64,000 nt of DNA from Patescibacteria group bacterium (GCA_041660565.1 JBAZWC010000001.1:238481-302480), one strand, 5' to 3'. Counted from the stretch's first letter, positions 19,237 to 52,348 are shown. Notes: generated from the letters alone by a model not told the origin. A program made the numbers and translations.

Positions 19237-19312
19237 GTCATTCCGGGCTTGACCCGGAATCTATATACAAAGTCTTTTATAGACTGGATTCCCGCCTTCG
19301 CGGGAATGACAG
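19237..19312. repeat. two adjacent intergenic palindromic elements (type A GTCATTCCGGGCTTGACCCGGAATCTATATA; type B ATTCCCGCcttcGCGGGAATGACA)
   Basis: perfect 8-bp stems; copies of both types recur across the window (see findings). Confidence 0.75.
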
Positions 19313-19330
19313 TGCTGATATTCGATATAT

Positions 19331-19738
19331 TTAACGTTTGGAGAACTGAGGACCACGACGGGCACCGTGTAAGCCGAATTTCTGACGCTCTTTTTCACGA
19401 GGATCACGAGTTAACAGGCCGAGTTTTTTCAATGTTGGTCTAAAAGTAATATCAAAATCAATTAATGATCGGGCTAAGCCATGGCGAATAGCGATGATCT
19501 GACCAATTTTTCCGCCACCAGATACGTGCGCAGAGATATCAACCTTATTAGTTAATCCTACTTGATCTAAAACATTAGATAATTCCGGATATAACTCAAC
19601 TGGTTTGTCGTTTACTAAGAAACGGCCGTTCCCGGTCATTAAACGTACTTGAGCAACCGCGGTTTTGCGTCTGCCGGTGCCGTAATTGTATTTTTCGTCA
19701 GTTGATTTTGTATCAACTTTTTCAATATTTTCGCTCAT
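19331..19738 (-). CDS. rpsI: 30S ribosomal protein S9
   Basis: GTGRRKTAVAQVRL ... RRGPQFSKR. Confidence 0.9.
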   Translation of the reverse strand: MSENIEKVDTKSTDEKYNYGTGRRKTAVAQVRLMTGNGRFLVNDKPVELYPELSNVLDQVGLTNKVDISAHVSGGGKIGQIIAIRHGLARSLIDFDITFRPTLKKLGLLTRDPREKERQKFGLHGARRGPQFSKR

Positions 19739-20160
19739 TTATTATCCTTAGCCTTTTCAACTTTTCCGAAGTTAGCGGCGTGTGGGTGATTACTATCTGC
19801 ATAGATGTGTAATCTTTTTAACCAAACATCTCGTTGCAGAGTTTTTGGTAACATGCCGTTCACGGCGTTGTAAATAATTTTACTTGGGTCTGTGTCTTTA
19901 AGTACTGAATAAGGCATGGTGCGCAAGCCGGTTGGCCAGCCGGTGTGATGGATATATGATTTAGTATTAGCTTTATTGCCGGTTACCACAATTTTAGCGG
20001 CATTTATGACCACTACCATATCACCAACATCGTTGTGGCGTCTAAAATCGACTTTATTTTTACCACGTAAATGACCAGCAATTTCGGTGGCTAATCTGCC
20101 TAAAACTTTACCTTCGGCATCAATTAAATACCATTTTCGTTCAATATCGGCGTTATTCAT
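19735..20160 (-). CDS. rplM: 50S ribosomal protein L13
   Basis: WYLIDAEGKVLGRLATEIA. Confidence 0.9.
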   Translation of the reverse strand: MNNADIERKWYLIDAEGKVLGRLATEIAGHLRGKNKVDFRRHNDVGDMVVVINAAKIVVTGNKANTKSYIHHTGWPTGLRTMPYSVLKDTDPSKIIYNAVNGMLPKTLQRDVWLKRLHIYADSNHPHAANFGKVEKAKDNK

Positions 20161-20573
20161 TTTTTACTCGACTTTTTGGTTTTAGGTTTTTCTTCAACAA
20201 CTTCTTCTTTTACAGTTTCAGTTTTTGCTACAACCGGCTTTGCTAGCTCTAATTTAGCAATCGGAGCAGCATCACCCAAGCGGCTACCGAGTTTGGTCAT
20301 TTTGACCATTCCACCGGTAACATTTTTAAACTGCGCATTGTAAACTTCAAAAATTTTACTGACAGCCATGTCGTCGAACAAGAATTGTTTGGCGCGGCGA
20401 CGTGCGGCCAATGTTCCAGATTTACAATCAGATAAAATTGAATCAACTTCTGCTTTAACTAATTTACCTTTAGGCACAGTCGTAACTATCGCTTCGTGTA
20501 AGATTAACGAGGTGCACAAGTTGCGAATTAAATGATCGCGATTAGCTTTTTTACGACTGAGTTTTCCTGGCAT
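20157..20573 (-). CDS. rplQ: 50S ribosomal protein L17
   Basis: RDHLIRNLCTSLILHEAIVTT; basic C-terminal extension. Confidence 0.9.
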   Translation of the reverse strand: MPGKLSRKKANRDHLIRNLCTSLILHEAIVTTVPKGKLVKAEVDSILSDCKSGTLAARRRAKQFLFDDMAVSKIFEVYNAQFKNVTGGMVKMTKLGSRLGDAAPIAKLELAKPVVAKTETVKEEVVEEKPKTKKSSKK

Positions 20574-21466
20574 TATTGCTCCCTAACTGCCACGATTTCG
20601 GTGATGGCTTTGGCGCCTAATCCACCAATTTGTGACAGAACATCTAAATCAGCATTTTTAATTGATTCAAGTGTGTTATAACCATTTTCGATCAATACTT
20701 TGATGGTGCGAGCTGACAAACCGGAGTCGGCCAAATCAGATTCTTCTGCATTGGCTTCGGCTACAGCTGGAGCTGCTTTTGCATCACCAAATGTGGCTAG
20801 CAAGTTGAACTGATCAACTAATATCGCAGATGATTCTTTGAACGCGTCTTTAGGCGAAACCGAACCGTCGGTGGTGATAGTTAAGGTTAACAAATCGTAG
20901 TTAGTCATTTTACCAACACGAGTGTTTTCAACTTCAATGCTGACTGCTTCAACTGGATTAAACAAACTATCAATTGCAATTCTACCAAGTTCTTTGGTGG
21001 ATGCTTCGCGTTTTTCCACTACATCGTAACCGCGTCCAAATTCAACAGTGGCTTCAAGATGTAAGCTAGATTTGGCGCTTAATGTGGCAATAAACTGGTC
21101 TGGGTTAACCACAGTGACGGAGCTAGAGGCCTTAAAGTCTTTAGCGGTCACTTTTCCCGGGCCTTTGGCATCAAGTGTGATAACCACTGGTTGGTCGGTT
21201 TGGTGTAGAGTAACACGCACTAATTTTAGATTTAAAATTAGCTCAACCACATCTTCTTTTACACCTTCTACGGTGGTAAATTCATGCGAAACGCCATCAA
21301 TTTTAACTGATGTAATAGCAGCGCCAGGCAAAGATGACAATAAAACGCGTCGTAAGCTATTTCCTAGTGTTTGGCCGAATCCTGGAAATAGCGGATTAAT
21401 CTTAAAGACGCTCTTTTTAGCGTTAATAACTTCTTCTGTGACTTCGGGTAAGATAATTTGATCCAT
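20573..21466 (-). CDS. rpoA: DNA-directed RNA polymerase alpha subunit
   Basis: GNSLRRVLLSSLPGAAITSVKIDGVSHEF; helix-hairpin-helix C-terminal domain; 297 aa. Confidence 0.9.
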   Translation of the reverse strand: MDQIILPEVTEEVINAKKSVFKINPLFPGFGQTLGNSLRRVLLSSLPGAAITSVKIDGVSHEFTTVEGVKEDVVELILNLKLVRVTLHQTDQPVVITLDAKGPGKVTAKDFKASSSVTVVNPDQFIATLSAKSSLHLEATVEFGRGYDVVEKREASTKELGRIAIDSLFNPVEAVSIEVENTRVGKMTNYDLLTLTITTDGSVSPKDAFKESSAILVDQFNLLATFGDAKAAPAVAEANAEESDLADSGLSARTIKVLIENGYNTLESIKNADLDVLSQIGGLGAKAITEIVAVREQ

Positions 21467-21487
21467 AATGTCCTTTCCTTCTCCTTA

Positions 21488-22081
21488 TTATCGAGAATAA
21501 TACTCGACAATCAACTGTTCGTTGATATCTTGATCGCTATGAGCACGCTCTGGTTCGCTCACCACTGATCCATTTTTCGTCTTTTTGTTGTAGCTTAACC
21601 ATGATGGGATTGTATCGACAGACTCTTCATTTACCGGTTCAAACTTTTTGTTAAGGGTAATTTTATCACCCGCAGATACTTGATAAGACGGGATGTTTAC
21701 GGTCTGATCGTTTACCTTAAAGAATTTATGCGATACCAGCTGTCTGGCGTGAGCGCGAGTGGAAGCGTATCCCAATCGATAAACAACGTTATCCAATCTT
21801 TTTTCCAGCAAACGAAGCATCAATTCCGCGGTGTTGGCAGATGATTTGGCGGCTTTTGCATAGTAAAGTTTAAACTGTCCTTCATTAATACCATACAAAC
21901 GTCTAACTTTTTGCTTTTCTTGCAACTGACGTGAGTATTCTGAGCCATATTTTGAAGCAGCAGAAATGGCAGCAGAAACTGATACTAATGACGGGTTTTT
22001 AGACTTAATACTTTTTTCACGCAAAAATAATCTTTGTGCAGATTTACGGTAACGTGGACTGGTTGGTTGTTTACTTGGCAT
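21488..22081 (-). CDS. rpsD: 30S ribosomal protein S4
   Basis: RLDNVVYRLGYASTRAHARQLVSH. Confidence 0.9.
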   Translation of the reverse strand: MPSKQPTSPRYRKSAQRLFLREKSIKSKNPSLVSVSAAISAASKYGSEYSRQLQEKQKVRRLYGINEGQFKLYYAKAAKSSANTAELMLRLLEKRLDNVVYRLGYASTRAHARQLVSHKFFKVNDQTVNIPSYQVSAGDKITLNKKFEPVNEESVDTIPSWLSYNKKTKNGSVVSEPERAHSDQDINEQLIVEYYSR

Positions 22082-22104
22082 TATGTACTCTCATTAATCT
22101 TAAT

Positions 22105-22503
22105 TTATACTCGTCGTGGCTTTTTGGCCCGAACGCCGTTATGAGCAATTGGAGTAAGGTCTTTAATAGCTACGATGTCAATTCCAGAGTTACCAAGGGC
22201 GCGAATAGCTGACTCTCTGCCGGTACCAACGCCGGAAATGTGAACAGATGCCTCAACCATACTCATCGCTTTAACCCGATCTAACACGGCAAGCATAGCG
22301 GTTTGGGCGGCGTATGGAGTAGATTTTCGTGCTCCCTTAAACCCAGCAGATCCGGCAGTAGCCCAAGCTAAAACGTTACCAGATGTATCTGAAACCGAAA
22401 TAATAGTGTTATTAAAAGTAGATTGGATCGAAATAATTCCTTTAGGAACGACTTTTCGAACTTTACTTTTCTTGACAACTTTTTTGGTGGAATTTGTGGC
22501 CAT
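22105..22503 (-). CDS. rpsK: 30S ribosomal protein S11
   Basis: IISIQSTFNNTIISVSD...GSAGFKGARKSTPYAAQ. Confidence 0.9.
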   Translation of the reverse strand: MATNSTKKVVKKSKVRKVVPKGIISIQSTFNNTIISVSDTSGNVLAWATAGSAGFKGARKSTPYAAQTAMLAVLDRVKAMSMVEASVHISGVGTGRESAIRALGNSGIDIVAIKDLTPIAHNGVRAKKPRRV

Positions 22504-22524
22504 AATTTTCTCTGTTTCTTAATT

Positions 22525-22911
22525 TTAGGTTTTTTGAGCGGTAGGTTTGCGACCAGATCCAACAGTCACCTTTTTACCACGTTTGCTTCTGGCGTTGGTT
22601 TTGGTGCGCTGACCCCGAACTGGTAGTGATTTGGCATGTCTGGTGCCACGATACGCCCCAATTTCTTTTAAGCGCTTAATATTCTGCTGAATTTCTTGAC
22701 GTAAATCACCTTCAACTTTGATGGTTTTATCAATAATTTGGCGAATACGTTCAATATCTGCTTCAGAAAGCTCGCTCATTTTTGGATTGTCAGTAATTTT
22801 AGCTTGAGTCAGTACCTTTTTAACATTTGAAGGACCAACACCAAAAATATAACTTAAACCAATTTCAGCGCGCTTGTTATCTGGGATATTAATTCCAGCA
22901 ATTCTAGCCAT
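22525..22911 (-). CDS. rpsM: 30S ribosomal protein S13 (start at internal Met MARIAGINIP; the ORF-track N-terminal extension is rejected)
   Basis: MARIAGINIPDNKRAEIGLSYIFGVG; aggag RBS upstream of the ATG at 22911. Confidence 0.88.
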   Translation of the reverse strand: MARIAGINIPDNKRAEIGLSYIFGVGPSNVKKVLTQAKITDNPKMSELSEADIERIRQIIDKTIKVEGDLRQEIQQNIKRLKEIGAYRGTRHAKSLPVRGQRTKTNARSKRGKKVTVGSGRKPTAQKT

Positions 22912-22918
22912 AATTCTC

Positions 22919-23032
22919 CTAGCCCTGTCTCTGTTTATGTTTTGGATTTGTGCACAGAACACGAACAACACCGCAACGTCTAATAATACGGCAATTTTGG
23001 CACATAACTTTTACTGATGATCTAACTTTCAC
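22919..23032 (-). CDS. rpmJ: 50S ribosomal protein L36 (37 aa, GTG start); below the ORF-track length cutoff
   Basis: Translation [37 protein letters not shown] with C-x2-C...C zinc ribbon; aggaag RBS; canonical position between infA and rpsM. Confidence 0.75.
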
Positions 23033-23349
23033 TTTACTTCCTCGTTGTCTTTAACACTTTCATCTATGGTTTCGATAGGTTTAGCGACCACCGGTTCTTC
23101 TACTACGGGTTCAGGAACGTTTTTGTTTATCGGTAAACGGCGGATAATCCGACCTTTAGATAAATCGTACACGCTCATTTCAATTAAAACGCGGTCACCG
23201 GGCAAAATTTTGATAAAATTAACCCGCATTTTGCCAGATAAATGACAAAAAATAACCTGTCCACCATCTAGAATCACTCTAAAAGTGGCGTTTGGTAAAG
23301 ACTCTTCTACCAAACCTTCAACTTCAATTACGTTTTCCTTTGAACTCAA
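23029..23349 (-). CDS. infA: translation initiation factor IF-1 with ~35-aa acidic C-terminal extension
   Basis: S1-like core [36 protein letters not shown]; tail [10 protein letters not shown]...DNEEVK. Confidence 0.85.
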
Positions 23350-23503
23350 GTGTGGTTGTCCTTAATACTAACTAATAAAATATTAACATATTCATTGCGA
23401 TTATGCAAGACTTTTGTCAGTGTAAACGTCACGAGCATTGTAGGGGCGGACTCGAATGTCCGTCCGCCCGACACTTTGTGAAGAAATGATGTGGAATATA
23501 TTT

Positions 23504-23537
23504 CTATATAGATTCCGGATCAAGCCCGGAATGACAG
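23504..23537. repeat. palindromic element type A (CTATATAGATTCCGGatcaagCCCGGAATGACA)
   Basis: inverted-orientation copy of the 19237 element, directly downstream of the map stop. Confidence 0.7.
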
Positions 23538-23541
23538 ATCG

Positions 23542-24324
23542 TCATATTAATGTTAAGATCTCGCAGCCGTTCTCGGTCACGACAACGGTGTGTTCAAAGT
23601 GTGCTGCCCACGATTGATCACGAGTACGCACTGTCCAGCCATCATTATCCTGTTTTACATGCCAATCTCTCATTGTCAGCATCGGCTCAATAGCAATAGT
23701 ATCGCCGGTATGCAATACATCACCGCTACCAGCATTACCGAAATTAGGTACGTTCGGCTTTTGGTGAATTGCCTCCCCTACCCCGTGTCCAACCAAATCA
23801 CGCACCACCCCAAAATGGTTTTCTTCTGCGTAATTTTGAATAAAGTGACCGATATCACCGGTAGTAACGCCGTTTTTGATCGTGTTTATCGCTTTTGATA
23901 AAGAATAATAGGTTACATACAAAAGCCGTTCACTTTCGTATAATTTTAAATTCTTATCAATTTTATCGTCATAGATGTCTCTTAACGTTTTACAGCCAGT
24001 TTCGGTTGCAATGACCGTTACAGCGGCATCGGTAAAATAGCCTTGATATTCCACTCCCAAATCCAAACTGACTAGATCGCCGGTTTTAATTGGAACGTTG
24101 TCTGGTATGCCGTGCACCACTTCGTCGTTTACCGAAACGCACAAACTAGCCGGATATCCTTCATATCCTTTAAACGCCGGCTTGCCTCCCGCTTTAACGA
24201 TTTCTGACTCCGCATATTTATCCAGTTCGATTCCGGTTATGCCGGCTCGTACTTGATGAGCGGTTTCATCCAAAACTCGGGCGAGGATTTTTCCGCCCAA
24301 ACGCATCGCTTCAATTTTGGTCAT
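23542..24324 (-). CDS. map: methionine aminopeptidase type I
   Basis: 260 aa; metal-ligand pattern (D..D..H..E..E), pita-bread fold motifs. Confidence 0.9.
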   Translation of the reverse strand: MTKIEAMRLGGKILARVLDETAHQVRAGITGIELDKYAESEIVKAGGKPAFKGYEGYPASLCVSVNDEVVHGIPDNVPIKTGDLVSLDLGVEYQGYFTDAAVTVIATETGCKTLRDIYDDKIDKNLKLYESERLLYVTYYSLSKAINTIKNGVTTGDIGHFIQNYAEENHFGVVRDLVGHGVGEAIHQKPNVPNFGNAGSGDVLHTGDTIAIEPMLTMRDWHVKQDNDGWTVRTRDQSWAAHFEHTVVVTENGCEILTLI

Positions 24325-25001
24325 TTTAGCTTCTCAATTAATGCGGTTTTAACAGAATCAGCAACGATTTCGATTTCTGGTTTGGCGTCTACATTTATCA
24401 AGCAGTCAATCTCATCAAAGTATCTGATAACCGGGTCGGTTTCGTGATGAAATTGGGCCAACCGTTGCTTAATGGCGGATTCATTGTCATCAGATCGTTT
24501 TACCAATTTTCCACCACAATGTGTGCATCTGTTTAGCAGTTTGTAAAAATATTCTTGTGCATTTCTGACCACGTGTTTAGGATAAACAATGTCACCACAT
24601 TTTGAACAAATTAATCTCATTTCTAATCGTTTAATACTCTCAGTATCTTTTAGTTGTAAGTTTATTACAACTAATGGGTGATTATATTTTTTGAGCTGAG
24701 CAAACAAATGCTTAGCTTGTGGCAGCGTTCGGGGATATCCATCAAATAGCATGCCACGACCAAAGTGCTTGGAAATTTGATGATTCACTTCGTCGTTTAA
24801 TATCTCGTCAGGTAGTAAAATACCTTTGTTAATTAGATCTCGCGCCAAAATACCGGCGTGATTATTGTGTTTGGCGATTGCGCGGGAGATATCACCACCG
24901 GATATGACCGACAAATGATAACGTTTCTTTAATATGGCCGCTTGCGTGCCTTTGCCGCTTCCCTGCGGACCGATTAGTATAATATTAAATGATTTTGCGA
25001 T
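24321..25001 (-). CDS. adk: adenylate kinase with zinc-ribbon lid; 5' end extended beyond the first canonical start because the P-loop lies upstream (putative AUC start at 25001)
   Basis: upstream in-frame IAKSFNIILIGPQGSGKGTQA P-loop; ISGGDISRAIAK; lid C-x2-C...C-x2-C; gagcgagagg RBS 5 nt before the ATC; no ATG/GTG/TTG in frame between the upstream TGA and codon 24914. Confidence 0.7.
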   Translation of the reverse strand: MAKSFNIILIGPQGSGKGTQAAILKKRYHLSVISGGDISRAIAKHNNHAGILARDLINKGILLPDEILNDEVNHQISKHFGRGMLFDGYPRTLPQAKHLFAQLKKYNHPLVVINLQLKDTESIKRLEMRLICSKCGDIVYPKHVVRNAQEYFYKLLNRCTHCGGKLVKRSDDNESAIKQRLAQFHHETDPVIRYFDEIDCLINVDAKPEIEIVADSVKTALIEKLK

Positions 25002-25102
25002 GTTAACCTCTCGCTCTCATTCTAGCACAAACTAGCTGATCTGGATATAAATAAAAATTTCCATCATTTCAAATTGTAAATTTCAAATTTCAAATTTTGT
25101 GT

Positions 25103-25777
25103 CTAATAAGCTACTGTCACTGGCGTCCACACTGTCTTCTCGCCCTTATTTGGCTGATACGCGTGTAGTGTAACGGTATGAAGCTTGCCTAGGTGCGTTA
25201 CCTCTACCACCGCCACACCGGTAGAGATATCTTTACTCTTAAGAACGTACAAATCATTTGATGAAAAACTGTACTTTGCCAGTAGCGGAGACTGTTCTAC
25301 TACCATCACCGGGTTTAGGCGATACGCCAACTGTCCGGTGCCCGCATCGGCATATTGCTGCGCAGAGGCCAAACCGTCTGTTTCTTCCTGGGTAGATCTA
25401 ACAGTGTCAGTTGTAGCCTGAACGGTGGCGTTTTCGTTTGCGGTCGGAATTTTTAATTTATCCCCTACTTTTAATACCGAAGTTTCTTCCAACCCGTTAA
25501 TTTTAGCTAACACCGTCCATTGAATGTTGTATTGTTTGCCAATAGTGTAAAGAGAATCACCTTGTTTTACGGTGTAGATCTCGTTCACGTCTGTGGGCGT
25601 GGGGGTGGCACTTGGTACAGGAGTCGAAGTTGCGTTTGTTGATATGGCCGACGCCGATGACGTGCGGTGGGTCAAATTTTTGTATATCAAAAACGCACTA
25701 CCGATAATTAATATCAAATAGACCAAAATCAATCGTTTTGATAATCGATGGACCATATAGTTAGTATGAGAGAACAT
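25103..25777 (-). CDS. LysM domain membrane-anchored protein
   Basis: N-terminal TM, T/S/P linker, LysM YTVKQGDSLYTIGKQYNIQWTVLAKINGL...VGDKLKIP. Confidence 0.7.
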   Translation of the reverse strand: MFSHTNYMVHRLSKRLILVYLILIIGSAFLIYKNLTHRTSSASAISTNATSTPVPSATPTPTDVNEIYTVKQGDSLYTIGKQYNIQWTVLAKINGLEETSVLKVGDKLKIPTANENATVQATTDTVRSTQEETDGLASAQQYADAGTGQLAYRLNPVMVVEQSPLLAKYSFSSNDLYVLKSKDISTGVAVVEVTHLGKLHTVTLHAYQPNKGEKTVWTPVTVAY

Positions 25778-25905
25778 TGCTAAAAACTCAAGATCGCATC
25801 GTCAACTCTAACGAATACGAGAGATCCTGTATCGTTCAGTAACTTGGGGATCTCTCGCCGTTCGACGCCGCTCATGGTGTCGGGTGGAGCGCCCACGTCA
25901 GTTAT

Positions 25906-25938
25906 CTAAATAGATTCCGGGTCAAGCCCGGAATGACA
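25906..25938. repeat. palindromic element type A followed by AT-rich AAATTTCAAATTGTAAATT-type motif (to ~25977)
   Basis: TAGATTCCGGGtcaagCCCGGAATGACAG between secY and the LysM gene. Confidence 0.7.
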
Positions 25939-26031
25939 GCTTCTAAAAAATCATTTCAAATTTCAAATTGTAAATTAGATGCTTCGCATCGAAATCACTC
26001 ACACAGTGCTCGTGATTATCAAATTGGTACT

Positions 26032-27327: not shown

Positions 27328-27373
27328 TCGATCCTTATGCTATAAGATATAACATGACCCACCCCAACGGATG

Positions 27374-27796
27374 CTATGAAGTTTTGTTTAGATCCAATCC
27401 GAGTTTTTTTGTAAGTATAATGCCATCATCAAATTTAAATTTCTTTGTGAAACTACTTACACCAATAATTTTAGCACGTTTGTTAGCAGCTTTTATCAAT
27501 TTGCTTTCGAAAAGCATGGTAGGAGTAATTTCGGCACCATCTTTAAACATCCGCTCAAGCGCAATATAAGATACAACTTGTGGCTTTTGAATATGACTTT
27601 TGGTTCCGTGGATTTTTGGCAAGCGCTGCATTAACGATGATTGTCCACCTTCAAATCTACGTGGAATGTTATATCCCGAGCGAGATTTTTGACCTTTTGT
27701 ACCACGTCCGGCGGTTTTACCTTGCCCGGCGGAAATACCGCGGCCAACTCGAGATTTTTTAGTTGCGGTTTTAGATAGTTGATGCAGTTCAGTCAT
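27374..27796 (-). CDS. rplO: 50S ribosomal protein L15
   Basis: [27 protein letters not shown]. Confidence 0.9.
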
Positions 27797-28271: not shown

Positions 28272-28278
28272 CTTTCTC

Positions 28279-28614: not shown

Positions 28615-28623
28615 ATTATATCC

Positions 28624-29573: not shown

Positions 29574-29582
29574 ATTATTCTC

Positions 29583-39549: not shown

Positions 39550-39584
39550 ATCATCAGTACGCTACCTGACCGGAGGTGGATGAG

Positions 39585-40007
39585 ATGAGCATTATGGAGG
39601 GCAAGATCGTATGGCACCTCGATTCGAATCTGCAGACTCGTCGGATCATCTGCAGTAACCTAGAGCGATTGGGATGCATCGTAGTCGGGTTTAATAACAC
39701 CGACGAGATAATCGATCGCCTTGGCGCAATTGAAGCCAATCAGTTGCCGTCAGCGGTTATCACCGAGGTTGCCGGTACCACCGGCAAAGCCGATTTCGCA
39801 ATTCTCTCGATGTTGCGTCGAAACCAGCTTACTCAGAATGTCCCAATCCTGGTGCTGACCGAATGCACTAATGACCAAGACGTGTCCGACGGCTGGCAAC
39901 TTGGCGCTGACTGTATCTTGTCGAAGCCGTTCAACCCGATGGAGGTGTCGGCTGTCCTCAGACGGTTCTTCAAATCGCTCGAGGAGTACCCGCCCGAGCC
40001 TGTATGA
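39585..40007 (+). CDS. stand-alone receiver (REC/CheY-like) domain protein with Glu at the phospho-Asp position; GC-rich
   Basis: KIVWHLDSN (beta1 acidic pair), SAVITEVAG (beta3, D to E), PILVLTE (conserved T), GADCILSKPF (conserved K); ~57% GC vs ~40% host. Confidence 0.55.
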   Translation: MSIMEGKIVWHLDSNLQTRRIICSNLERLGCIVVGFNNTDEIIDRLGAIEANQLPSAVITEVAGTTGKADFAILSMLRRNQLTQNVPILVLTECTNDQDVSDGWQLGADCILSKPFNPMEVSAVLRRFFKSLEEYPPEPV

Positions 40008-40017
40008 CCAGCCCCAG

Positions 40018-40050
40018 CTCCGCAGACGCGCGCCGTTTGCGGAGATGTTT
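40018..40050 (+). terminator. rho-independent terminator (ctccgca...tgcggag + T tract)
   Basis: 7-bp GC stem followed by atgtttt; overlaps the -35 of the next promoter. Confidence 0.6.
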
Positions 40051-40054
40051 TATA

Positions 40055-40082
40055 TTGACAAATTACATAATAATCCTATACT
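40055..40082 (+). promoter_or_regulatory. consensus promoter TTGACA-N16-TATACT
   Basis: ttgacaaattacataataatcctatact; RBS aggggaggtaagg before ATG 40128. Confidence 0.6.
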
Positions 40083-40127
40083 GGTGTCATCTGGCTGTAG
40101 CGCACCACACAGGGGAGGTAAGGCAAA

Positions 40128-40538
40128 ATGGCCGTGAACCTTAAGGGCAAGCAAGTGCTGTATGTCGTCAACGGCGTTGATATACAATACGCCTGGATTC
40201 TCAACTACGTGACGTCTGAACTCGGCGCGGCCACGTTGCTGTCGTTTCAGGACGCGGTGAGTATGATCAATCACTCACCTGACCCCGAAAGAGTGGGGGT
40301 GGTATTCTACCTAACCGGACCGTCAGACTTCCCCGGCATGAACACGGTGCGTTACCTGGCGCAACTGGGCTACCGGGTCATTGTTATCGGGCAGTCTTCC
40401 GAGGTGATATATGGCGTGTGGGCTGGCCTTGCTGGCGCTGTCGCTTTCATCCCAACTGGACACTTGGACTGCGCCTGCGTTAAAGAAGCGATTAGGGTCG
40501 CTTTCATGACCGAGATCGCAACGCCTGTTCCGGCCTGA
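40128..40538 (+). CDS. degenerate receiver-like (CheY-fold) protein; GC-rich
   Basis: alternating beta/alpha pattern QVLYVVNG / VGVVFYLTGPSDFPGMN / RVIVIGQSSE / AVAFIPTGHL matching REC topology but with D/T/K positions substituted. Confidence 0.4.
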   Translation: MAVNLKGKQVLYVVNGVDIQYAWILNYVTSELGAATLLSFQDAVSMINHSPDPERVGVVFYLTGPSDFPGMNTVRYLAQLGYRVIVIGQSSEVIYGVWAGLAGAVAFIPTGHLDCACVKEAIRVAFMTEIATPVPA

Positions 40539-40563
40539 CCCACGCACACCCATCTCCACCTCG

Positions 40564-40600
40564 TCTCCGCACGCGCCAGTCGCCTGCGGAGATGTTTTTT
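40564..40600 (+). terminator. rho-independent terminator (tctccgca...tgcggaga + TTTTTT)
   Basis: 8-bp stem, 13-nt loop, T6 tract. Confidence 0.65.
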
Positions 40601-40601
40601 A

Positions 40602-40629
40602 TTGACAAAACGCAACATTACTCTATAAT
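40602..40629 (+). promoter_or_regulatory. perfect-consensus promoter TTGACA-N16-TATAAT
   Basis: ttgacaaaacgcaacattactctataat. Confidence 0.65.
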
Positions 40630-40694
40630 TAATGCCATCAACCGTACCTGCACAACCTAGGTCTTCCGTTCTGGACCAGAGAGGATATCGCGCG

Positions 40695-41240
40695 ATGGGG
40701 TCATTTCGGATCAGTCAAGCAGACGCCGAGGAAATGCATCACCTTCTCGAATCGCTAATCCGGCTACATGATAACAGACCGCTTCCGAATGGCGTGTCAC
40801 TGGACACTATTGTCAGACGAGCCAGATCGGTTCACGGTCGCATCGGCTGCCTGCGCAACAGGAAAAAGGCGCTGCTAAACGCGCCGATATTCTCGAACTT
40901 GATGGTGGTCGAACACCCGTTTAGCGGCCGAACGGTGGTATTGGCGGAGCGCTCCAATATGGTCTCACGCGAAACGTCGCTTGAGTCCACGTTGGACCTT
41001 GCCAATGAGATCTGCATGATCTACCGAATCCCCCTCGATCAGCTAGACTGGTACGAGCGGGATCAGCCGGTAACATCGGGTCAGACCCCCAAGCAAGCGG
41101 ACGTCCGCTGCTTCTCGGTCATCTTCCAGATTGTGGACGGGCGGCTGGATAGTTTCTCCCGTGTTGCGCTATCCAGCGACGAGCTCGCAACTCGCACCCT
41201 GGGCCTGGAGTTTGCCAAGCGGCTCTCGCCAGTGTTCTAG
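40695..41240 (+). CDS. GC-rich hypothetical protein (181 aa from internal Met; the ORF-track start at 40632 lies inside the promoter and was rejected)
   Basis: gagagga RBS then ATG at 40695; no recognisable domain. Confidence 0.4.
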   Translation: MGSFRISQADAEEMHHLLESLIRLHDNRPLPNGVSLDTIVRRARSVHGRIGCLRNRKKALLNAPIFSNLMVVEHPFSGRTVVLAERSNMVSRETSLESTLDLANEICMIYRIPLDQLDWYERDQPVTSGQTPKQADVRCFSVIFQIVDGRLDSFSRVALSSDELATRTLGLEFAKRLSPVF

Positions 41241-41287: not shown

Positions 41288-41330
41288 CCTCCGCGACGGG
41301 CAACCGTTTCGGAGGGTATTTTATTTATAT
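41288..41330 (+). terminator. rho-independent terminator (ccctccg...cggaggg + tattttattt)
   Basis: third member of the same terminator family at the end of the GC-rich island. Confidence 0.6.
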
Positions 41331-41357
41331 AGATTCCGGATCTAGTCCGGAATGACA
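41324..41357. repeat. palindromic element type A (ATAGATTCCGGAtctagTCCGGAATGACAC)
   Basis: marks the right border of the GC-rich island. Confidence 0.7.
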
Positions 41358-41424
41358 CAAAAAAAGTCCGTGTTACGCTCGAACAAAAAATCCGTCACCC
41401 GTCATCTGTTTTCCATTATCCGCT

Positions 41425-42069: not shown

Positions 42070-42160
42070 ACAATTATTATAATCTGTCTCGGACAGATTA
42101 CAATAAAAATTCGAAATTCAAAGCACCAAGCACTAAATAAATTTGAAAAAAGTTCTTCTT

Positions 42161-42192
42161 GTCATTCCGGGCTTGACCCGGAATCTATATAG
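42161..42192. repeat. palindromic element type A (GTCATTCCGGGCTTGACCCGGAATCTATATAG)
   Basis: identical to the 19237 copy. Confidence 0.75.
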
Positions 42193-42211
42193 AAGAACTC
42201 TTTCATATACT

Positions 42212-42287
42212 GGATCCCGGATACTCCTTACAACCTTGCGATTGAAGTCGTTAGTTTCTATCGAAACAATCAAGTCCGGGATGACAG
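42212..42287. repeat. ~76-nt structured element type C (GGATCCCGGATACTCC ... GTTTCtatcGAAAC ... CAAGTCCGGGATGACA)
   Basis: long-range inverted ends plus internal 5-bp hairpins; second copy at 63905-63986 with compensatory changes. Confidence 0.6.
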
Positions 42288-42306
42288 CAGAATGTGTTTA
42301 TTTCGT

Positions 42307-42789
42307 TTACCCGGTAAACTTGGCAAAGTGAGCAAAGGCCTTGTTGGCGTCTGCCATGCGGTGCATATCGTCTTTTTTCTTCATCGCTGCGCCGGTGTTG
42401 TGATAAGCATCGGTAATTTCTTCGGCCAGAAACTCTGACATTGGTTTGCCTTGTTTGCCGCGAGCAGATGCAATCATCCACTTCATCGCTAAAGTTTGAC
42501 GACGAGCGCGAGGCACTTCAAACGGGATTTGATAGTTTGCGCCACCAATACGTTTACCTTTAACCTCTAACACCGGTGAGGCATTTTTGATAGCGGTATC
42601 AAACACTTCCATTGGGTCTAGGTTGGTTTTTTTGCCAATTTGCTCAAGCGCAGTATAGACAATTTTTTGGGCGACTGATTTTTTGCCATCTAGCAAAATA
42701 TAGTTGATAAACTTACCCAATGCGACGCTTTGATAAACTGGATCAGGTTGGACAATATTAATTTTAGGATGATTTCGGCCTCTTGACAT
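42307..42789 (-). CDS. rpsG: 30S ribosomal protein S7
   Basis: str-operon position; S7 pattern. Confidence 0.9.
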   Translation of the reverse strand: MSRGRNHPKINIVQPDPVYQSVALGKFINYILLDGKKSVAQKIVYTALEQIGKKTNLDPMEVFDTAIKNASPVLEVKGKRIGGANYQIPFEVPRARRQTLAMKWMIASARGKQGKPMSEFLAEEITDAYHNTGAAMKKKDDMHRMADANKAFAHFAKFTG

Positions 42790-42790
42790 A

Positions 42791-43210: not shown

Positions 43211-43276
43211 TCAGGTCCTTATGAATTAGATATTGTTTACATTTTAACAGGTTGAAGGTCCAAAGTCAAACACCAA

Positions 43277-43352
43277 TTCTTGTTCGAGCGATAGCGAGAA
43301 CTACGCTATAGATAGTTCTCGTCAACGCTTGCAGCGGTTCCTCGAACAAGAA
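43277..43352. repeat. empty copy of the palindromic element that carries GIY-YIG at 18543-18895
   Basis: ttcttgttcgagcgatagcgagaactacgctatag | atagttctcgtcaacgcttgcagcggttcctcgaacaagaa; 12-bp and 9-bp arms perfectly inverted. Confidence 0.7.
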
Positions 43353-43360
43353 CAATGGAA

Positions 43361-47176: not shown

Positions 47177-47186
47177 TTCTTCTCCT

Positions 47187-50100
47187 TTATGCTTCTTCAG
47201 CAGCTGCGACAGGCTCTGACAACTCGTCATCACTGCCAATTTCGGTTACTAATTTATCCACTGCTTCTTCGTCTTCAATCATGCCGCCAACCGGCTCGTT
47301 TAAGATTTCTTCTAAGGTTTCACCAGTGTCAGAGACCGGCGCCATCGCCTTTTTGGCCTCTTCCAAATGAATTTCAAAGTTTTTGGCGTCTTCATCGCTT
47401 AACAACTGAACCGACAAGCCTAAGCTTTGCAACTCTTTAACCAACACGTTAAACGATTCCGGAATAGATGGTTTTTGAATTGGATCGCCCTTAATAATGG
47501 CTTCGTAAACTTTGCTTCTACCCACGGTGTCATCGGATTTAACCGTCAACATTTCTTGCAAAGTATGAGCGGCACCATAAGCCTCTAATGCCCAAACTTC
47601 CATTTCTCCGAATCGCTGGCCACCAAACTGGGCTTTTCCACCCAATGGCTGCTGGGTGATCATGGAGTATGGTCCAACTGAACGAGCGTGCATCTTGTCA
47701 TCAACCAAGTGAGACAATTTCATGATGTAGTTAATACCGGTGGTAGTAGTGTGATCAAAACCGGCGCCGCTGCGGCCATCAAACAACTGAATTTTGCCGG
47801 TCTTAGGCAATTTGGCTTTCTCTAAGTAAGTTTGAATCTGCTCCCAACTTAAACCTTCAAATACCGGGCTGGCTACTTTGATGTTTAAGGTGTTGGCGGC
47901 CCAGCCTAGGTGAGTCTCTAAAATCTGACCCAAGTTCATACGGGAAACCACACCCAGCGGGTTAAGAATGATGTCTACCGGCGTGCCATCTGGCATATAC
48001 GGCATATCTTCTACCGGCAAAATGGTAGAAATAACACCTTTGTTACCGTGACGTCCGGCTAATTTATCACCAACCGCAATTTTACGTAACTGAGCCACCG
48101 AGATTTCTACTTGCTGATAAACACCGGCTGGCAACTCATCACCCTGATCTTTATTAAATAATTTAATCTCAACCACTTTACCGCGTTCGCCGTGAGGCAA
48201 GCGCAAAGAGGCGTCTCGGACGTCTTTGGCTTTTTCACCAAAGATGGCGCGTAACAATTTTTCTTCGGCAGACAACTCGGTCTCACCTTTAGGCGTAATT
48301 TTACCCACCAAAATGTCGCCGGTCTCTACCTCTGCACCAATGCGCACAATACCGCTTTCGTCTAAGTTAGACAGCGCTTCTTCGGACACGTTTGGGATAT
48401 CTTGAGTGATTACTTCTGGCCCCAATTTAGTGTCTCGTACTTCACAAACGTATTTTTCGATGTGAATAGAGGTGAAACGATCTCGATGTAACATGCGCTC
48501 GGAAATAATGATAGCATCTTCAAAGTTACCACCACCCCAGCTCATAAACGCCACCAAAACGTTCTGACCCAAGGCCAGCTCGCCTTTATCGGTGGCAGAG
48601 CTATCGGCAATCACCTGACCCTTAACCACGTGTTGCTCAACATCTACAATTGGACGTTGGTTAATACAAGTGGCCTGGTTTGATCGCACAAATTTCTGTA
48701 ATTTATAAACTTTTTTCTCTTTAGTATCGTCTTCCAACACGGTAATGTGATGGGCGGTTGATTCCAAAACCGTACCAGACTCATCGGCAATAATAATCTG
48801 ACCGGAGTCGTAAGCGGCCTCGTACTCCATACCAGTACCCACCACCGGAGATTGCGGCACAATAACCGGCACAGCTTGACGTTGCATGTTTGCACCCATC
48901 AACGCGCGCGCGGCTTCATCGTGTTCAATGAACGGGATCAAGGAAGCCGAAATACCCAAAATCTGTTTCGGCGAAACATCAATATATTGAATTTTCTTAG
49001 TATCTTCAACCGCCGGCTCACCAAATCTACGCACCAAAGTACGAACTTCTGTAAAGTAGCCGTCTTTGTCAATTGGAGCTGAGGCTGGAGCAATGATGTG
49101 ACGCTCTTCGGTGGCGGCATCTAAATAATCAATTTTATCACTAACCTTGGTCTTGCCATCAATCTGCTCAACTTTGCGGTAAGGTGATTCGATAAAACCG
49201 TAATCATTCACCCGTCCGTAAGAAGCCAAATAGCCCACCAACCCAATGTTCGGGCCTTCTGGGGTTTCAATTGGGCAAATGCGGCCGTAATGAGTAGGAT
49301 GAACGTCTCGAACTTCGAAACCGGCGCGCTCACGAGAAAGTCCACCCGGACCGGTAGCGGAAAGCGTGCGCTTGTTACCAAGCTCGGCTAGCGGGTTAGT
49401 CTGGCTCATAAACTGTGATAACTGAGATGAGGCAAAGAACTCTTGCAACACCGCCATAATTGGGCGCGAGTTAACCAACTGCGCCGGCGTAACGGTGGCA
49501 ATGTCTGAGACGCTCATGCGATCTTTAACAATACGTTCCATACGCAACAAACCAACGCGAATTTTAGCCTGCACCAATTCACCCACGGCGCGAACGCGGC
49601 GGTTGGCTAAGTGATCGATATCATCTTTCTTAGCAGTTGGATCGTTATTTAATCTAATTACTTCTTTAACGATGGCGATAAAATCATCCATCCGCAAAAT
49701 TCGATTCTCAACTACGTCTTTAACCTGCAAATTCAAACGAATGTTCATGCGATAACGGCCAACGCGCCCAAGATCGTAGCGTTTGTTATTAAAGAACAAC
49801 ATATTCAAGAACGAACGTGCGCCTTCTGGGTTAGCCAAGTCTCCCGGGCGAATCTTTTTATAAACTTCTACCACGGCCTGATCTTCGCTTTTAGTCACGT
49901 CTTTTTCAAGTGTGGCGTTAATGTACTGGTGATCTGGATTAGTATCTACATCTTTAAACAAATCACGAATAGCATCGTCGTTAGCGTAACCAAAAGCACG
50001 CAAGAACGTAGTGACATTAATGCGGCGTTTGCGATCAATTTTAACCGTAATCACGTCTTTAGCGTTAGTTTCAACTTCTAACCATGCGCCGCGGTTAGGA

Positions 50101-50579
50101 ATAATTTTAGCGCCAAATAAGTTGCGGCCGGGCACTTCATCGTTAGCAAAAAGTACGCCATATGAGCGTACAATCTGGGTAACAACCACACGCTCAATAC
50201 CGTTAATAATAAAGGTGCCGCGTTTGGTCATCAACGGGAAATCACCCAAAAAGACATCGCTCTCTTTAATTTCACCGGTTTCTTTGTTCAACAAGCTAGC
50301 GCGAGCCTTAAATGGGGCTTTGTAAGTTAAGTTTTTGTCGCGCGCCATTTCTTCGGTAATGCGCGATTTGTCTAGGGTTGGAGAGCTAAAAGTAAGCGAC
50401 AAGCTTTTGCCGGTAAAATCTTCTATTGGATTAATCTCGTCTAAAAGCTCTTGAACACCTTGCTCAAACAACCATTTATATGAGTTCGTCTGAATTTCGA
50501 TAAGGTTTGGTAACTTGGTGGGGTTTGGATTACCGGATAAATAGATTCTTTCTGGCTTAGTGCTTGCACTTTTACTCAT
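47187..50579 (-). CDS. rpoB: DNA-directed RNA polymerase beta subunit
   Basis: 1130 aa; conserved beta-subunit blocks; agggag RBS before ATG 50579. Confidence 0.95.
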   Translation of the reverse strand: MSKSASTKPERIYLSGNPNPTKLPNLIEIQTNSYKWLFEQGVQELLDEINPIEDFTGKSLSLTFSSPTLDKSRITEEMARDKNLTYKAPFKARASLLNKETGEIKESDVFLGDFPLMTKRGTFIINGIERVVVTQIVRSYGVLFANDEVPGRNLFGAKIIPNRGAWLEVETNAKDVITVKIDRKRRINVTTFLRAFGYANDDAIRDLFKDVDTNPDHQYINATLEKDVTKSEDQAVVEVYKKIRPGDLANPEGARSFLNMLFFNNKRYDLGRVGRYRMNIRLNLQVKDVVENRILRMDDFIAIVKEVIRLNNDPTAKKDDIDHLANRRVRAVGELVQAKIRVGLLRMERIVKDRMSVSDIATVTPAQLVNSRPIMAVLQEFFASSQLSQFMSQTNPLAELGNKRTLSATGPGGLSRERAGFEVRDVHPTHYGRICPIETPEGPNIGLVGYLASYGRVNDYGFIESPYRKVEQIDGKTKVSDKIDYLDAATEERHIIAPASAPIDKDGYFTEVRTLVRRFGEPAVEDTKKIQYIDVSPKQILGISASLIPFIEHDEAARALMGANMQRQAVPVIVPQSPVVGTGMEYEAAYDSGQIIIADESGTVLESTAHHITVLEDDTKEKKVYKLQKFVRSNQATCINQRPIVDVEQHVVKGQVIADSSATDKGELALGQNVLVAFMSWGGGNFEDAIIISERMLHRDRFTSIHIEKYVCEVRDTKLGPEVITQDIPNVSEEALSNLDESGIVRIGAEVETGDILVGKITPKGETELSAEEKLLRAIFGEKAKDVRDASLRLPHGERGKVVEIKLFNKDQGDELPAGVYQQVEISVAQLRKIAVGDKLAGRHGNKGVISTILPVEDMPYMPDGTPVDIILNPLGVVSRMNLGQILETHLGWAANTLNIKVASPVFEGLSWEQIQTYLEKAKLPKTGKIQLFDGRSGAGFDHTTTTGINYIMKLSHLVDDKMHARSVGPYSMITQQPLGGKAQFGGQRFGEMEVWALEAYGAAHTLQEMLTVKSDDTVGRSKVYEAIIKGDPIQKPSIPESFNVLVKELQSLGLSVQLLSDEDAKNFEIHLEEAKKAMAPVSDTGETLEEILNEPVGGMIEDEEAVDKLVTEIGSDDELSEPVAAAEEA

Positions 50580-51035
50580 CACATTTCTCCCTTTGTTATC
50601 GAAACTATATTATTTATATATATTAGATTTGGGTGATAATACGCATCACAGTTTGTCATTTCGACTCCCTCCGGGCGTAGTCTACGGGCAGAGCCTCGAG
50701 CGTTGTCTCGAGGGTGGAGAAATCTTCATAAAGAGTTCTCCTCGGTTCCGTTCTCTGTCCTCTGTCATCTGTTTTCCGAATTTACACAAAACGGCCGGTT
50801 CTGCTTGGATAGCAGAAACAGCCTGCTTAATGTCAGGACTTAAGCCGAAATTATTACCATGAGGCTCCGACGTTTGGCTAATCTATATTTAGGCTATCAA
50901 AAGTTTGATAGCTTGTCAACCCCCTGGCAACGAGGGGTTGCCAAAATTTTAAATTTTAAATTTTAAATTTGAAATTGGTCGAATTTTTGTTTTTAGATAG
51001 TCTTTCACCCGGATTGTCATTCCGGGCTCGACCCG

Positions 51036-51120
51036 GAATCTATATAAATAGAACATCCATACGCAGTTCAAATTATAAATTTCAAAATGTAAATTCACCC
51101 ACCCGCCTTGCTCTTTACTC
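51036..51120. repeat. composite element: type A palindrome + AACATCCATACGCAGT + AT-rich AAATTTCAAAATGTAAATT
   Basis: near-identical composite at 52266-52348. Confidence 0.7.
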
Positions 51121-51190
51121 TTATATATGTTATTATATTGGCATACTGAGCGCCATTGCTCAGAATTCGGTTCACAATAAGGAGTCCGTG

Positions 51191-51481
51191 ATGCGACACG
51201 CTCAAGGCGGGAAAATCCGAGGCAAGCACACGAGCATCATCGACGAGGCCGAGTCGCTGATTAAGGCGGTGGACGGCCTGGCGTGCGTTACTGGAGTGAG
51301 TCTTGGATTCATCCAGCACACCAAAGGGCGCCCAGTCCCGAAGAACCTCAAGTTCCTTGACGTGGATGCCGGGCTGCAACTCACCGTTCGCGCCCCAAAG
51401 ACGGTTCAGACGCTGATTGTCTATACCAGCGACCGAACCGGCACGGCAAAAGCGCTTTGCGAGGCCTTCTACAAGAAGTGA
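51191..51481 (+). CDS. GC-rich small hypothetical protein (96 aa)
   Basis: taaggag RBS + ATG 51191; ~58% GC; ends in a terminator shared with the next cassette. Confidence 0.4.
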   Translation: MRHAQGGKIRGKHTSIIDEAESLIKAVDGLACVTGVSLGFIQHTKGRPVPKNLKFLDVDAGLQLTVRAPKTVQTLIVYTSDRTGTAKALCEAFYKK

Positions 51482-51505
51482 CCTCGCGCCCATCACCATC
51501 CACCA

Positions 51506-51548
51506 GGCCGGCAGTCCACCACGGACTCCCGGCCTAATTCTTTGCTTA
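51506..51548 (+). terminator. rho-independent terminator ggccggcagtccaccacggactcccggcc + taattctttgc
   Basis: nested GC hairpin + T-rich tail; duplicated verbatim at 52046-52090. Confidence 0.6.
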
Positions 51549-51556
51549 TTTATCTT

Positions 51557-51598
51557 GTCATTCCGGTCCGCCGGCTGGCGGATAATCCGGAATCTACA
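51557..51598. repeat. palindromic element type A variant with extended loop (GTCATTCCGGtccgccggctggcggataaTCCGGAATCTACATA)
   Basis: same stem as type A; loop forms its own hairpin. Confidence 0.65.
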
Positions 51599-51696
51599 TA
51601 AAAAGAATCATTCCAAATGTTTTAAAATTAAAAATTAAAAATTTAAAATTTTGCTTATGTCTATCCCCCATCACAATATCGAGTCCAACATTCGTC

Positions 51697-51725
51697 TTGA
51701 CATGATTATATTATTGTAGTATATC
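51697..51725 (+). promoter_or_regulatory. promoter TTGACA-N17-TATATC
   Basis: cttgacatgattatattattgtagtatatc upstream of RBS aaaggg and ATG 51759. Confidence 0.5.
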
Positions 51726-51758
51726 TAAATTATCCTGCAAGTCGAAAGGGTTAGTCCG

Positions 51759-51947
51759 ATGCCAGAGAGAGACACGCAGTCCCGCAGTGGCAGTATCGAA
51801 GTGACAGTGGGCTCCGGCCGCGATGGCGGCACCGGCCAGTCGACGACCGACATGCTGATCATCGATCACGACAGCCGCGACGGTAGCCACGACCACGTGG
51901 TCATCAGCGAGTCCGGCGAGACGCTGCACGACACCACCCGCAAGTAG
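51759..51947 (+). CDS. GC-rich small acidic low-complexity protein (62 aa), hypothetical
   Basis: ~63% GC ORF with its own promoter, RBS and the duplicated terminator. Confidence 0.3.
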   Translation: MPERDTQSRSGSIEVTVGSGRDGGTGQSTTDMLIIDHDSRDGSHDHVVISESGETLHDTTRK

Positions 51948-52045
51948 GAAGTGCACGGAGGGCTAACGCTCACACCGACACTTCCTGGGCAGATACCTCT
52001 ATCGGAGGCGTCTGCCTGTAATCATAGAACAGGGCCTCACCAAAG

Positions 52046-52090
52046 GCCGGCAGTCCACCACGGACTCCCGGCCTAATTCTTTGCCAATTT
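52046..52090 (+). terminator. second copy of the ggccggcagtccaccacggactcccggcc terminator
   Basis: identical 29-nt hairpin + taattctttgcc. Confidence 0.6.
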
Positions 52091-52102
52091 TTGTTTTCCC
52101 CT

Positions 52103-52348
52103 GTCATTCCGGATTTAATCCGGAATCTATTCCTATGGTGTCATTCCCGCGAAGGTGGGAATCCAGCCTATAAAAAACCGTCTTTCTTCTGGATCCCCGA
52201 ATAAAATGTCGGGGATGACAATTTAGTCAAAACCGTGCTCAAAAGAGAACCGTCCCCTATCCTTTGTCATTCCGGGCTCGACCTGGAATCTATATAGATA
52301 AAACTTCCATACACAGTAAAAATTAAAAAATTTAAAATTTAAAATTCC
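52103..52348. repeat. cluster of palindromic elements: type A (52103-52132), type B (52139-52175), type D ATCCCCGaataaaatgtCGGGGATGACA (52192-52224), composite type A + AT-rich (52266-52348)
   Basis: each has a perfect 7-8 bp inverted repeat; type B is near-identical to 19276-19312. Confidence 0.7.

Follow-up and report, generated by a model that had tools for sequence, protein, structure and literature searches.

What are the short palindromes that recur between the genes of a bacterium of the Candidate Phyla Radiation (CPR), and what kind of enzyme might read them? We addressed this question in a 64-kb stretch of DNA (hereafter, the window; ~42% GC) from a CPR/Patescibacteria genome, in which a sequence-only reading had described a family of short intergenic palindromic elements of types A, B and D, present in both orientations. 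The existence of this family was confirmed: the pattern ATTCCGG-N3-10-CCGGAAT has seven exact matches in the window, compared with none in 100 dinucleotide shuffles, and all the copies listed by that reading were recovered by searches with the words GTCATTCC and GGAATGAC and by a repeat finder. In the window we identified 15 oriented hairpins that follow the scheme TGTCAT-TCC-stem/loop-GGA-ATC, compared with about zero expected by chance. Based on their conserved features, we propose, with a probability of roughly 0.7, that these GTCAT-type elements belong to the class of oriented hairpin repeats that comprises dRS3, NTS and the Ssn-related motifs (SRMs), and that they represent single-stranded DNA (ssDNA) sites of a GIY-YIG nuclease of the Ssn type.

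Thirteen clear copies were found by the word searches, the repeat finder and a custom scan for GTCAT plus a stem, including a long-loop copy at 42205–42286 that was detected by the last of these and confirmed by reading. Two variant members were added by direct reading, namely a second long-loop copy at 63905–63985 and a more divergent, weaker one at 50655–50732. The estimate of at least nine type A copies agrees with the nine that we found, whereas three members of the family had been missed (42205–42286 on the minus strand, 63905–63985 on the minus strand and 50655–50732 on the plus strand). The positions given for the known copies were right except for 51036, which falls inside a copy that starts at 51014.

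When the 11 short copies were aligned, the elements proved to be oriented rather than simple palindromes, with TGTCA always at the 5′ side and C(TATA/CAG) always at the 3′ side. Two features are invariant, namely the sequence TGTCAT 5′ of the palindrome ATTCC..GGAAT and a C that directly adjoins this palindrome on its 3′ side; after this C comes TATATA in type A and CAG..CTATAAAA in type B. The type A palindrome is ATTCCGG-N7-CCGGAAT (21 bp) and that of type D is ATCCCCG..CGGGGAT. The upper stem varies with compensation among copies (GGGC..GCCC or GGAC..GTCC/GGAT..ATCC). The stems had been described as perfect and 7–8 bp long, which requires correction: they span 7–9 bp, and the copies designated A2, A9 and B2 each contain one G-T mismatch. 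Folded in silico as ssDNA, the elements form hairpins of approximately −5.3 to −14 kcal/mol with z scores of −2 to −5. Three tail-to-tail doublets are bounded by TGTCAT...ATGACA (19235/19272, 42159/42205 and 52139/52183), and the largest cluster is composed of four copies at 52101–52299.

This architecture is consistent with that of an experimentally characterised system. NTS is a 28-nt oriented sequence (CGTCATTCCCGCGMAVGCGGGAATCYRG) with dRS3 as its core, and NTS-like SRMs are present across phyla, where they associate with, and often flank, ssnA, a gene encoding a 94-aa single-domain GIY-YIG protein of the cd10448 family (Chenal et al, 2025, Nat Commun 16:2388, PMC11893778). SsnA binds the hairpin as ssDNA only and on one strand only, cuts a few nucleotides 5′, and acts on neither double-stranded DNA nor RNA; cleavage is controlled by the three bases 5′ of the palindrome and binding by the C just 3′ of it (PMC11893778). 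In N. meningitidis, the Ssn/NTS system restricts transformation by NTS-bearing DNA, and the biochemistry of Ssn was shown for the Neisseria and Wolbachia homologues (PMC11893778). All the short copies in the window keep GTC before the palindrome and C after it, which are the positions that proved critical in the assays of Chenal et al.

The dRS3 palindrome is defined as ATTCCC-N8-GGGAAT (20 bp) (Bentley 2007, PMC1797815; PMC11893778). Only the two type B copies reproduce it exactly (B1, ATTCCCGCGAAGGCGGGAAT; B2, ATTCCCGCGAAGGTGGGAAT), and these agree with the NTS consensus at 27 and 26 of 28 positions, respectively. Types A and D do not fit this palindrome but retain GTC, the arms ATTCC/GGAAT (or ATCCC/GGGAT) and the 3′ C; type A shares GTCATTCC and GGAATC with NTS and differs in the inner stem. 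As in dRS3/NIME repeats, the elements are intergenic and cluster beside variable or acquired genes. The differences from dRS3/NIME lie in the other palindromes of types A and D, in the host, which is a CPR bacterium of ~42% GC and not Neisseria, and in the long regular dRS3-RS arrays, which were not seen in the window. In Neisseria, dRS3 occurs in hundreds of copies per genome, within NIME arrays with RS spacers; these repeats were reportedly described by Parkhill in 2000, and the dRS3 core is said to have been known since then. With NTS and the SRMs, the elements of the window share GTCAT 5′ and C(YRG) 3′ of the palindrome, a wide phylogenetic spread, and the presence nearby of a gene for a ~90-aa single-domain GIY-YIG protein in a hairpin-gene-inverted-hairpin arrangement, although with flanking hairpins of another family.

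For the phylogenetic distribution, we scanned one genome per species (596 Gb) with the pattern GTCATTCCGG-N3-10-CCGGAATCTA, which has 20 specified bases. The GTCAT motif was present in at least 120 loci, compared with about 9 expected by chance according to a uniform-composition estimate. The matches listed include Alpha-, Beta-, Gamma- and Deltaproteobacteria, Fibrobacter, Bacteroidales, Ignavibacteriales, Nitrospirae, Dehalococcoidia, Melainabacteria, Planctomycetes, Elusimicrobia, Gemmatimonadota, Thermotogae, Rickettsia, ten CPR lineages and a Bathyarchaeota bin. The GTCAT motif spans most bacterial phyla and is no local invention. In the Bathyarchaeota bin, the bacterial-type motif GTCATTCCGGCGAAGGCCGGAATCTA occurs on two contigs (L020 and L056), as either a binning artefact or a genuine archaeal occurrence. 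Neighbouring hairpins no more than 120 nt apart were arranged tail-to-tail in 70 cases, head-to-head in 15 and in tandem in 14 among the matches listed, and the tail-to-tail doublet is a form common to the window and these loci. Also among the matches listed, canonical Ssn-type ORFs (open reading frames) are directly flanked by such motifs at L075, L078, L088 and L112; the hosts of Ssn genes with flanking motifs are a Sulfuricella contig with the exact type A core, Neisseria, Methylumidiphilus and a gammaproteobacterium, and the exact type A core (GGATTCCGGGTCAAGCCCGGAATGAC) lies in L112. A GIY-YIG gene was present within the fetched stretch (up to 8 kb) at 4 of the 120 listed loci, a proportion that is uninformative because a trans-acting single-copy gene need not adjoin most of its repeats.

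The window contains a candidate partner of its own, an Ssn-like GIY-YIG nuclease gene (18598–18864, plus strand) 370 nt from the first doublet (A1/B1). Its 88-aa product matches PF01541 (8e-14) over residues 6–78, and the family alignment, which includes the Neisseria homologue, shows Y10, Y20 and E67 without variation; these residues correspond to the GIY and YIG tyrosines and to the glutamate of REKQ. BLASTP aligned the protein with an Ssn-like ORF of Neisseria sp. at 40% identity (E 3e-14), and it also aligned over its full length with the UPF0213 protein of PDB 1zg2 (E 1.3e-12). The motif H-x-SG-x-G-x-x-(F/Y)T is common to the window protein and the UPF0213/YhbQ-type proteins (PDB 1zg2, 1ywl), whereas its C-terminal REKQIKDWSR-KKK..LI motif resembles Ssn. 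The protein scored 47 bits with a profile of four canonical Ssn sequences and 57 bits with that of UPF0213, while the two groups scored 13–22 bits against each other; this profile scoring places the CPR GIY-YIG subfamily between Ssn and UPF0213. No NCBIfam family was found for the window protein, and we know of no association of UPF0213 proteins with repeats.

This gene lies between hairpins of a second family, which we termed E (TTCTTGTTCGAG-loop-CGAGAACTA) and which differs from the GTCAT type. E1 (GTTCTTGTTCGAG-loop-CGAGAACTA; 18541–18576, plus strand) is located 21 nt upstream of the gene, and E2 (18868–18898, minus strand), its inverted copy, lies 3 nt past the stop codon. Two further copies, E3 (43276–43305, plus strand) and E4 (43311–43353, minus strand), form the left and right halves of a gene-less tail-to-tail doublet between rpoC and rpsL. 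We then compared orthologues of the GIY-YIG gene at 80 metagenome loci, the proteins being 53–66% identical. The E pattern occurs 293 times in 72 of these loci, whereas approximately 4.5 occurrences were estimated by chance, and it remains at background level in the GTCAT-motif loci of other genomes. A plus-strand E hairpin lies no more than 150 nt upstream of the gene in 57 of 72 loci; downstream, 44 of 77 loci have a minus-strand one at the same maximal distance, often 0–8 nt past the stop codon. The outer pair of the stem covaries, being C-G or G-C in 176 of 179 distinct copies, and the inner pair is complementary in 160 of 179, with a conserved tandem G.A between the two. The form T-S-TTC-GA-x...y-GA-GAA-S′, with its tandem G.A mismatch in the stem, may be the cognate of a CPR-specific nuclease subfamily.

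These results also provide the main points that weigh against our assignment of the GTCAT elements. The GIY-YIG gene of the window is flanked by E-type and not GTCAT-type hairpins; here the window departs from NTS/SRM loci, both in these distinct flanks with their tandem G.A stem and in a protein that shares only the above-mentioned 40% identity with its Neisseria counterpart. The 80 orthologue loci contain only 27 GTCAT hairpins compared with the 293 E motifs. Membership of the protein in cd10448 is putative, because it is as close to UPF0213 as to canonical Ssn, and a canonical ssn gene was not found in the 64-kb window. Furthermore, the published SRM pattern, HGTCWYN(0-2)YYVSBRHN(0-5)WNVSBRGN(0-2)RNCYNB, matches 1 of the 15 copies (B1, at 19284–19311; 0.16 matches in shuffles), type A missing it through its stem register. 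Since E flanks the gene and predominates in the orthologue loci, the cognate site of the window nuclease is probably E. With this gene residing in an E cassette, the GTCAT elements would most likely depend either on its product recognising them as well or on a canonical ssn paralogue at another place in the genome. As for the published pattern, it is narrower than the family, because the type A core flanks a canonical Ssn gene in L112.

The gene order on the minus strand of the window is rpoB-rpoC-rpsL-rpsG ... fusA-tuf-S10...secY-LysM-adk-map-infA...rpsI-rbfA. All copies had been described as intergenic and often following stop codons, and both statements hold: every copy lies outside Pfam-supported genes, overlapping only short mechanical ORFs that read through the repeats, and several lie 4–20 nt past stop codons (map, rpsI and rpsG). 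Their orientation relative to transcription is mixed. A1 (TTGTCATTCCGGGCTTGACCCGGAATCTATATA; type A, 19235–19270, plus strand; 8-bp stem, −8.5 kcal/mol as ssDNA, z −3.9) is located between the rpsI stop and the rbfA start and is paired tail-to-tail, as the left half of a doublet, with B1 (TGTCATTCCCGCGAAGGCGGGAATCCAG...; type B, 19272–19311, minus strand; −10.8 kcal/mol, z −5.0), one of the two exact dRS3 palindromes. A2 (type A, 23501–23537, minus strand) lies 4 nt past the stop codon of map, which encodes methionine aminopeptidase, and is upstream of infA. A sigma-70-like match in the loop and 3′ flank of A2 reaches only 9 of 12 positions and is not found in other copies, and a promoter role was rejected as a general function. 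A3 (type A, 25903–25939, minus strand) lies between secY and a conserved LysM gene. A4 (type A, 41324–41358, minus strand), in which A-T replaces G-C in the upper stem in a compensatory manner, separates a GC-rich island from a pilin-like gene.

A5 (type A, 42159–42194, plus strand) pairs tail-to-tail with the long-loop copy L1 (42205–42286, minus strand) and forms the left half of this doublet; L1 lies 20 nt past the rpsG stop and comprises TGTCATCCCGGACTTGAT, a 47-nt insert with two nested hairpins, and TCCGGGATCCAG. The second long-loop copy, L2 (63905–63985, minus strand), is 83% identical to L1, and the differences keep the nested hairpins paired. The inserts of ~47 nt in the loops of L1 and L2 contain the nested hairpin GTTYCgwtaGRAAC and a GCAA-looped stem, with compensatory substitutions between the copies. 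The divergent candidate at 50655–50732 (plus strand; TGTCATTTCGACTCCC...GGAGAAATC; fold z −1.5), identified by direct reading, is a weak member of the family. The remaining copies are A6 (type A, 51014–51049, plus strand), at the start of an 80-nt unit; A7 (type A, 51555–51605, plus strand), which has a long loop with an extended GC-rich inner hairpin (−14.1 kcal/mol, z −5.2); and the four of the largest cluster. The latter consist of A8 (type A, 52101–52136, plus strand), with the 9-bp stem ATTCCGGAT/ATCCGGAAT; B2 (type B, 52139–52178, plus strand), the left partner in a tail-to-tail doublet whose right partner is D (TGTCATCCCCGACATTTTATTCGGGGATCCAG; type D, 52183–52220, minus strand); and A9 (type A, 52264–52299, plus strand).

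The 80-nt unit at 51014–51093 (SRM, spacer and AT-rich motif) is repeated at 52264–52343 with 86% identity. Its last component is an AAATTT-periodic motif, detected by the repeat finder at 25065–25096, 25952–25983, 50945–50976, 51064–51095, 51619–51650 and 52318–52346. An AT-rich motif had been reported to follow several copies; the motif is real and adjoins four of them, on either side and not just after. It is also found at the borders of the LysM gene and of small GC-rich genes and could be a UP-element-like or bent-DNA module. A mechanical ORF of 170 aa (50969–51481, plus strand) reads through A6 (..LSPGLSFRARPGIYINRT..). It is plausible that the real gene in this interval starts at ~51192 (MRHAQGG...), with AAGGAG ahead of the start. 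SRM repeats can accordingly yield spurious ORFs or N-terminal extensions (such as “SFRARPGIY” through A6), and they can coincide with short-read assembly breaks. Logan contigs of SRR18595301 from the same organism (L001 and L205) have two ends inside copies, at window positions 19285 (B1) and 63972 (L2), and one more contig end falls in the AT-rich motif (25082), the other ends being outside repeats. The two short-read contigs that end inside copies suggest that the elements are present in multiple copies genome-wide.

The clusters border two GC-rich islands (39576–41240 and 51100–52100; 55–64% GC compared with 42% overall), the pilin-like gene and a defence-like block (52339–63781). Copies had been noted at the borders of inserted genes, among which the LysM gene was wrongly counted, as it is conserved in relatives. 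The GC-rich islands look horizontally acquired, with SRMs at their borders. They contain small ORFs, of which one has a weak response-regulator receiver domain and the remainder lack Pfam hits, together with near-consensus sigma-70 promoters (e.g., TTGACA-16-TATAAT at 40602) and repeated terminator-like modules (40018–40080/40565–40627 and 51505–51559/52044–52098). The defence-like block encodes a PD-(D/E)XK/Cas4-like nuclease, an AAA/SMC-like ATPase, a ResIII helicase with a TnsA-like endonuclease domain, an N6_N4 DNA methyltransferase and an SNF2 helicase, and is bracketed by the SRM cluster at 52101–52299 on one side and the SRM at 63905–63985 on the other. Elsewhere in the window, two large ORFs of secreted or surface type (5998–8025 and 8203–12267) carry internal tandem repeats of ~276–309 nt with 72–74% identity, and the larger one contains DUF2341, fn3 and PKD domains.

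A comparison with relatives had been recommended together with the description of the family. Two loci with 73% SecY identity to the window (L202 and L204), which have diverged too far for intergenic sequences to be aligned, keep its gene order but contain no such elements and no GIY-YIG gene. The corresponding spacers are 9–67 nt long in the compact L204 compared with 103–254 nt in the window. Because these syntenic relatives lack them, the elements represent lineage-specific gains, and the E(+)-gene-E(−) unit, absent from the same relatives, may act as a mobile cassette. Between secY and adk, the relatives keep the LysM-domain gene (window, 25103–25777; L202, 11451–12140; L204, 11312–11953); since its position is conserved, this gene is a feature of the CPR group and not an insertion.

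Several other explanations were considered for the GTCAT elements. The sequence-only reading had likened them to repetitive extragenic palindromic (REP) elements or miniature inverted-repeat transposable elements (MITEs), which was right as a general category but missed the specific identity as SRMs of the dRS3/NTS type, whose documented partner is a GIY-YIG nuclease and not a transposase. As in REP elements and REPINs, we observe short, dispersed intergenic hairpins, frequent inverted doublets (three in the window and the tail-to-tail majority of 70 compared with 15 head-to-head and 14 tandem pairs across phyla), a single-copy nuclease gene between its own repeats, and lineage-specific expansions, the elements being absent from relatives. 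The REP/RAYT system is characterised by hairpins with a conserved GTAG head and by a gene for RAYT, a Y1 transposase, that REPs flank. The head in the window is instead GTCA, and the enzyme is of the GIY-YIG and not the HUH/Y1 type. The window proteins scanned against Pfam included no RAYT and no Y1, DDE or IS110 transposase domain; one product has the TnsA-like endonuclease domain. The doublets have MITE-like TGTCAT...ATGACA ends, and target-site duplications had been suggested as a test, but on direct reading the three doublets show none at their sharp outer ends, where the flanking bases differ (CCTT/GTGC, TTCT/GCAG and ATGG/ATTT). Finally, the same motif flanks Ssn-type GIY-YIG genes elsewhere (PMC11893778 and the loci listed above). 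Movement by a transposase (RAYT/IS200-like Y1 or DDE) unrelated to GIY-YIG is accordingly very improbable in our assessment.

The possibility that the elements act on RNA, as terminators, processing sites or 3′-end stabilisers in or between the ribosomal operons, had also been raised, and it draws some support from the copies that lie shortly past stop codons, from palindromes that would fold in RNA either way round, and from the nested hairpins that the long-loop copies maintain by compensatory changes, one with a GCAA loop. This role is not supported by the other properties of the family: none of the copies precedes a T-tract (3′ of the palindrome stands CTATATA or CCAG), none was called terminator-like, the orientation to transcription is mixed, and compact relatives run the same operon without the elements. 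Rfam gave no match at gathering thresholds over the whole window or at permissive thresholds over 42100–42350 and 50550–52400. The conserved asymmetric GTC and C are moreover those needed by a DNA nuclease, and SsnA does not bind RNA (PMC11893778), so that we consider an RNA-level function unlikely. Alternatively, the copies might be recombinase target sites that mark the insertion points of acquired islands. In Neisseria, dRS3 is a documented integration target of filamentous (Nf) prophages by means of a transposase/recombinase that the phage encodes (PMC1797815), and in the window copies border both GC-rich islands and the defence-like block. Many other copies are situated between core ribosomal genes with nothing inserted, and no recombinase, integrase or prophage genes were identified among the window proteins scanned. 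As the principal explanation we regard this role as doubtful; it is compatible with that of Ssn sites and does not exclude it.

Based on the properties of SsnA, the assignment of the GTCAT elements to the SRM class would imply the following mechanism. When the DNA becomes single-stranded, as in transforming DNA or in replication and repair intermediates, ATTCC..GGAAT would fold into the 7–9-bp hairpin that we obtained in silico. A nuclease of the Ssn kind would bind the strand that carries GTC-palindrome-C and nick it a few nucleotides 5′, as we infer from the conservation of the critical nucleotides. The cutting of SRM-bearing single strands would in turn influence recombination near the genes that the SRMs flank. 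Competence and pilus genes are reportedly common among Patescibacteria, and the window itself includes a pilin-like gene. The repeats themselves would have spread in the manner of REPs, often as doublets and as either selfish or domesticated elements, their lineage-specific gain being supported by the comparison with relatives.

More tentatively, and as a possibility that we rate below even odds, the genome may harbour two parallel hairpin/nuclease systems. One would consist of the GTCAT SRMs and the other of the so far undescribed Ssn-like CPR GIY-YIG/E pair as a mobile cassette. Its REPIN-like non-autonomous derivatives would be the doublets that lack a gene, namely E3/E4 and the GTCAT doublets found across phyla. 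If this is true, a second REP/REPIN world, independent of RAYT and extending over most bacterial phyla, would be driven by Ssn-type nucleases. The report of Chenal et al mentions neither CPR bacteria nor tail-to-tail doublets (PMC11893778), and a literature search on GIY-YIG and Patescibacteria returned no description of such repeats. Four points go beyond the searchable literature: the CPR hosts, the commonest variant's escape from the SRM pattern, the predominance of tail-to-tail doublets and the E-hairpin/GIY-YIG pair. As the published pattern misses type A, the commonest variant here, SRM censuses are probably underestimates. The E hairpin and its GIY-YIG subfamily also add a new candidate pair of enzyme and site to the tools for cutting ssDNA.

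For the organism itself, the elements place an uncultured ultra-small CPR bacterium in the Ssn/SRM system, for which experimental characterisation is confined to Neisseria and Wolbachia. As CPR bacteria are considered to rely on the uptake of DNA, an ssDNA nuclease system that is directed by hairpins and borders acquired islands and a defence-like block could plausibly regulate what these bacteria integrate.

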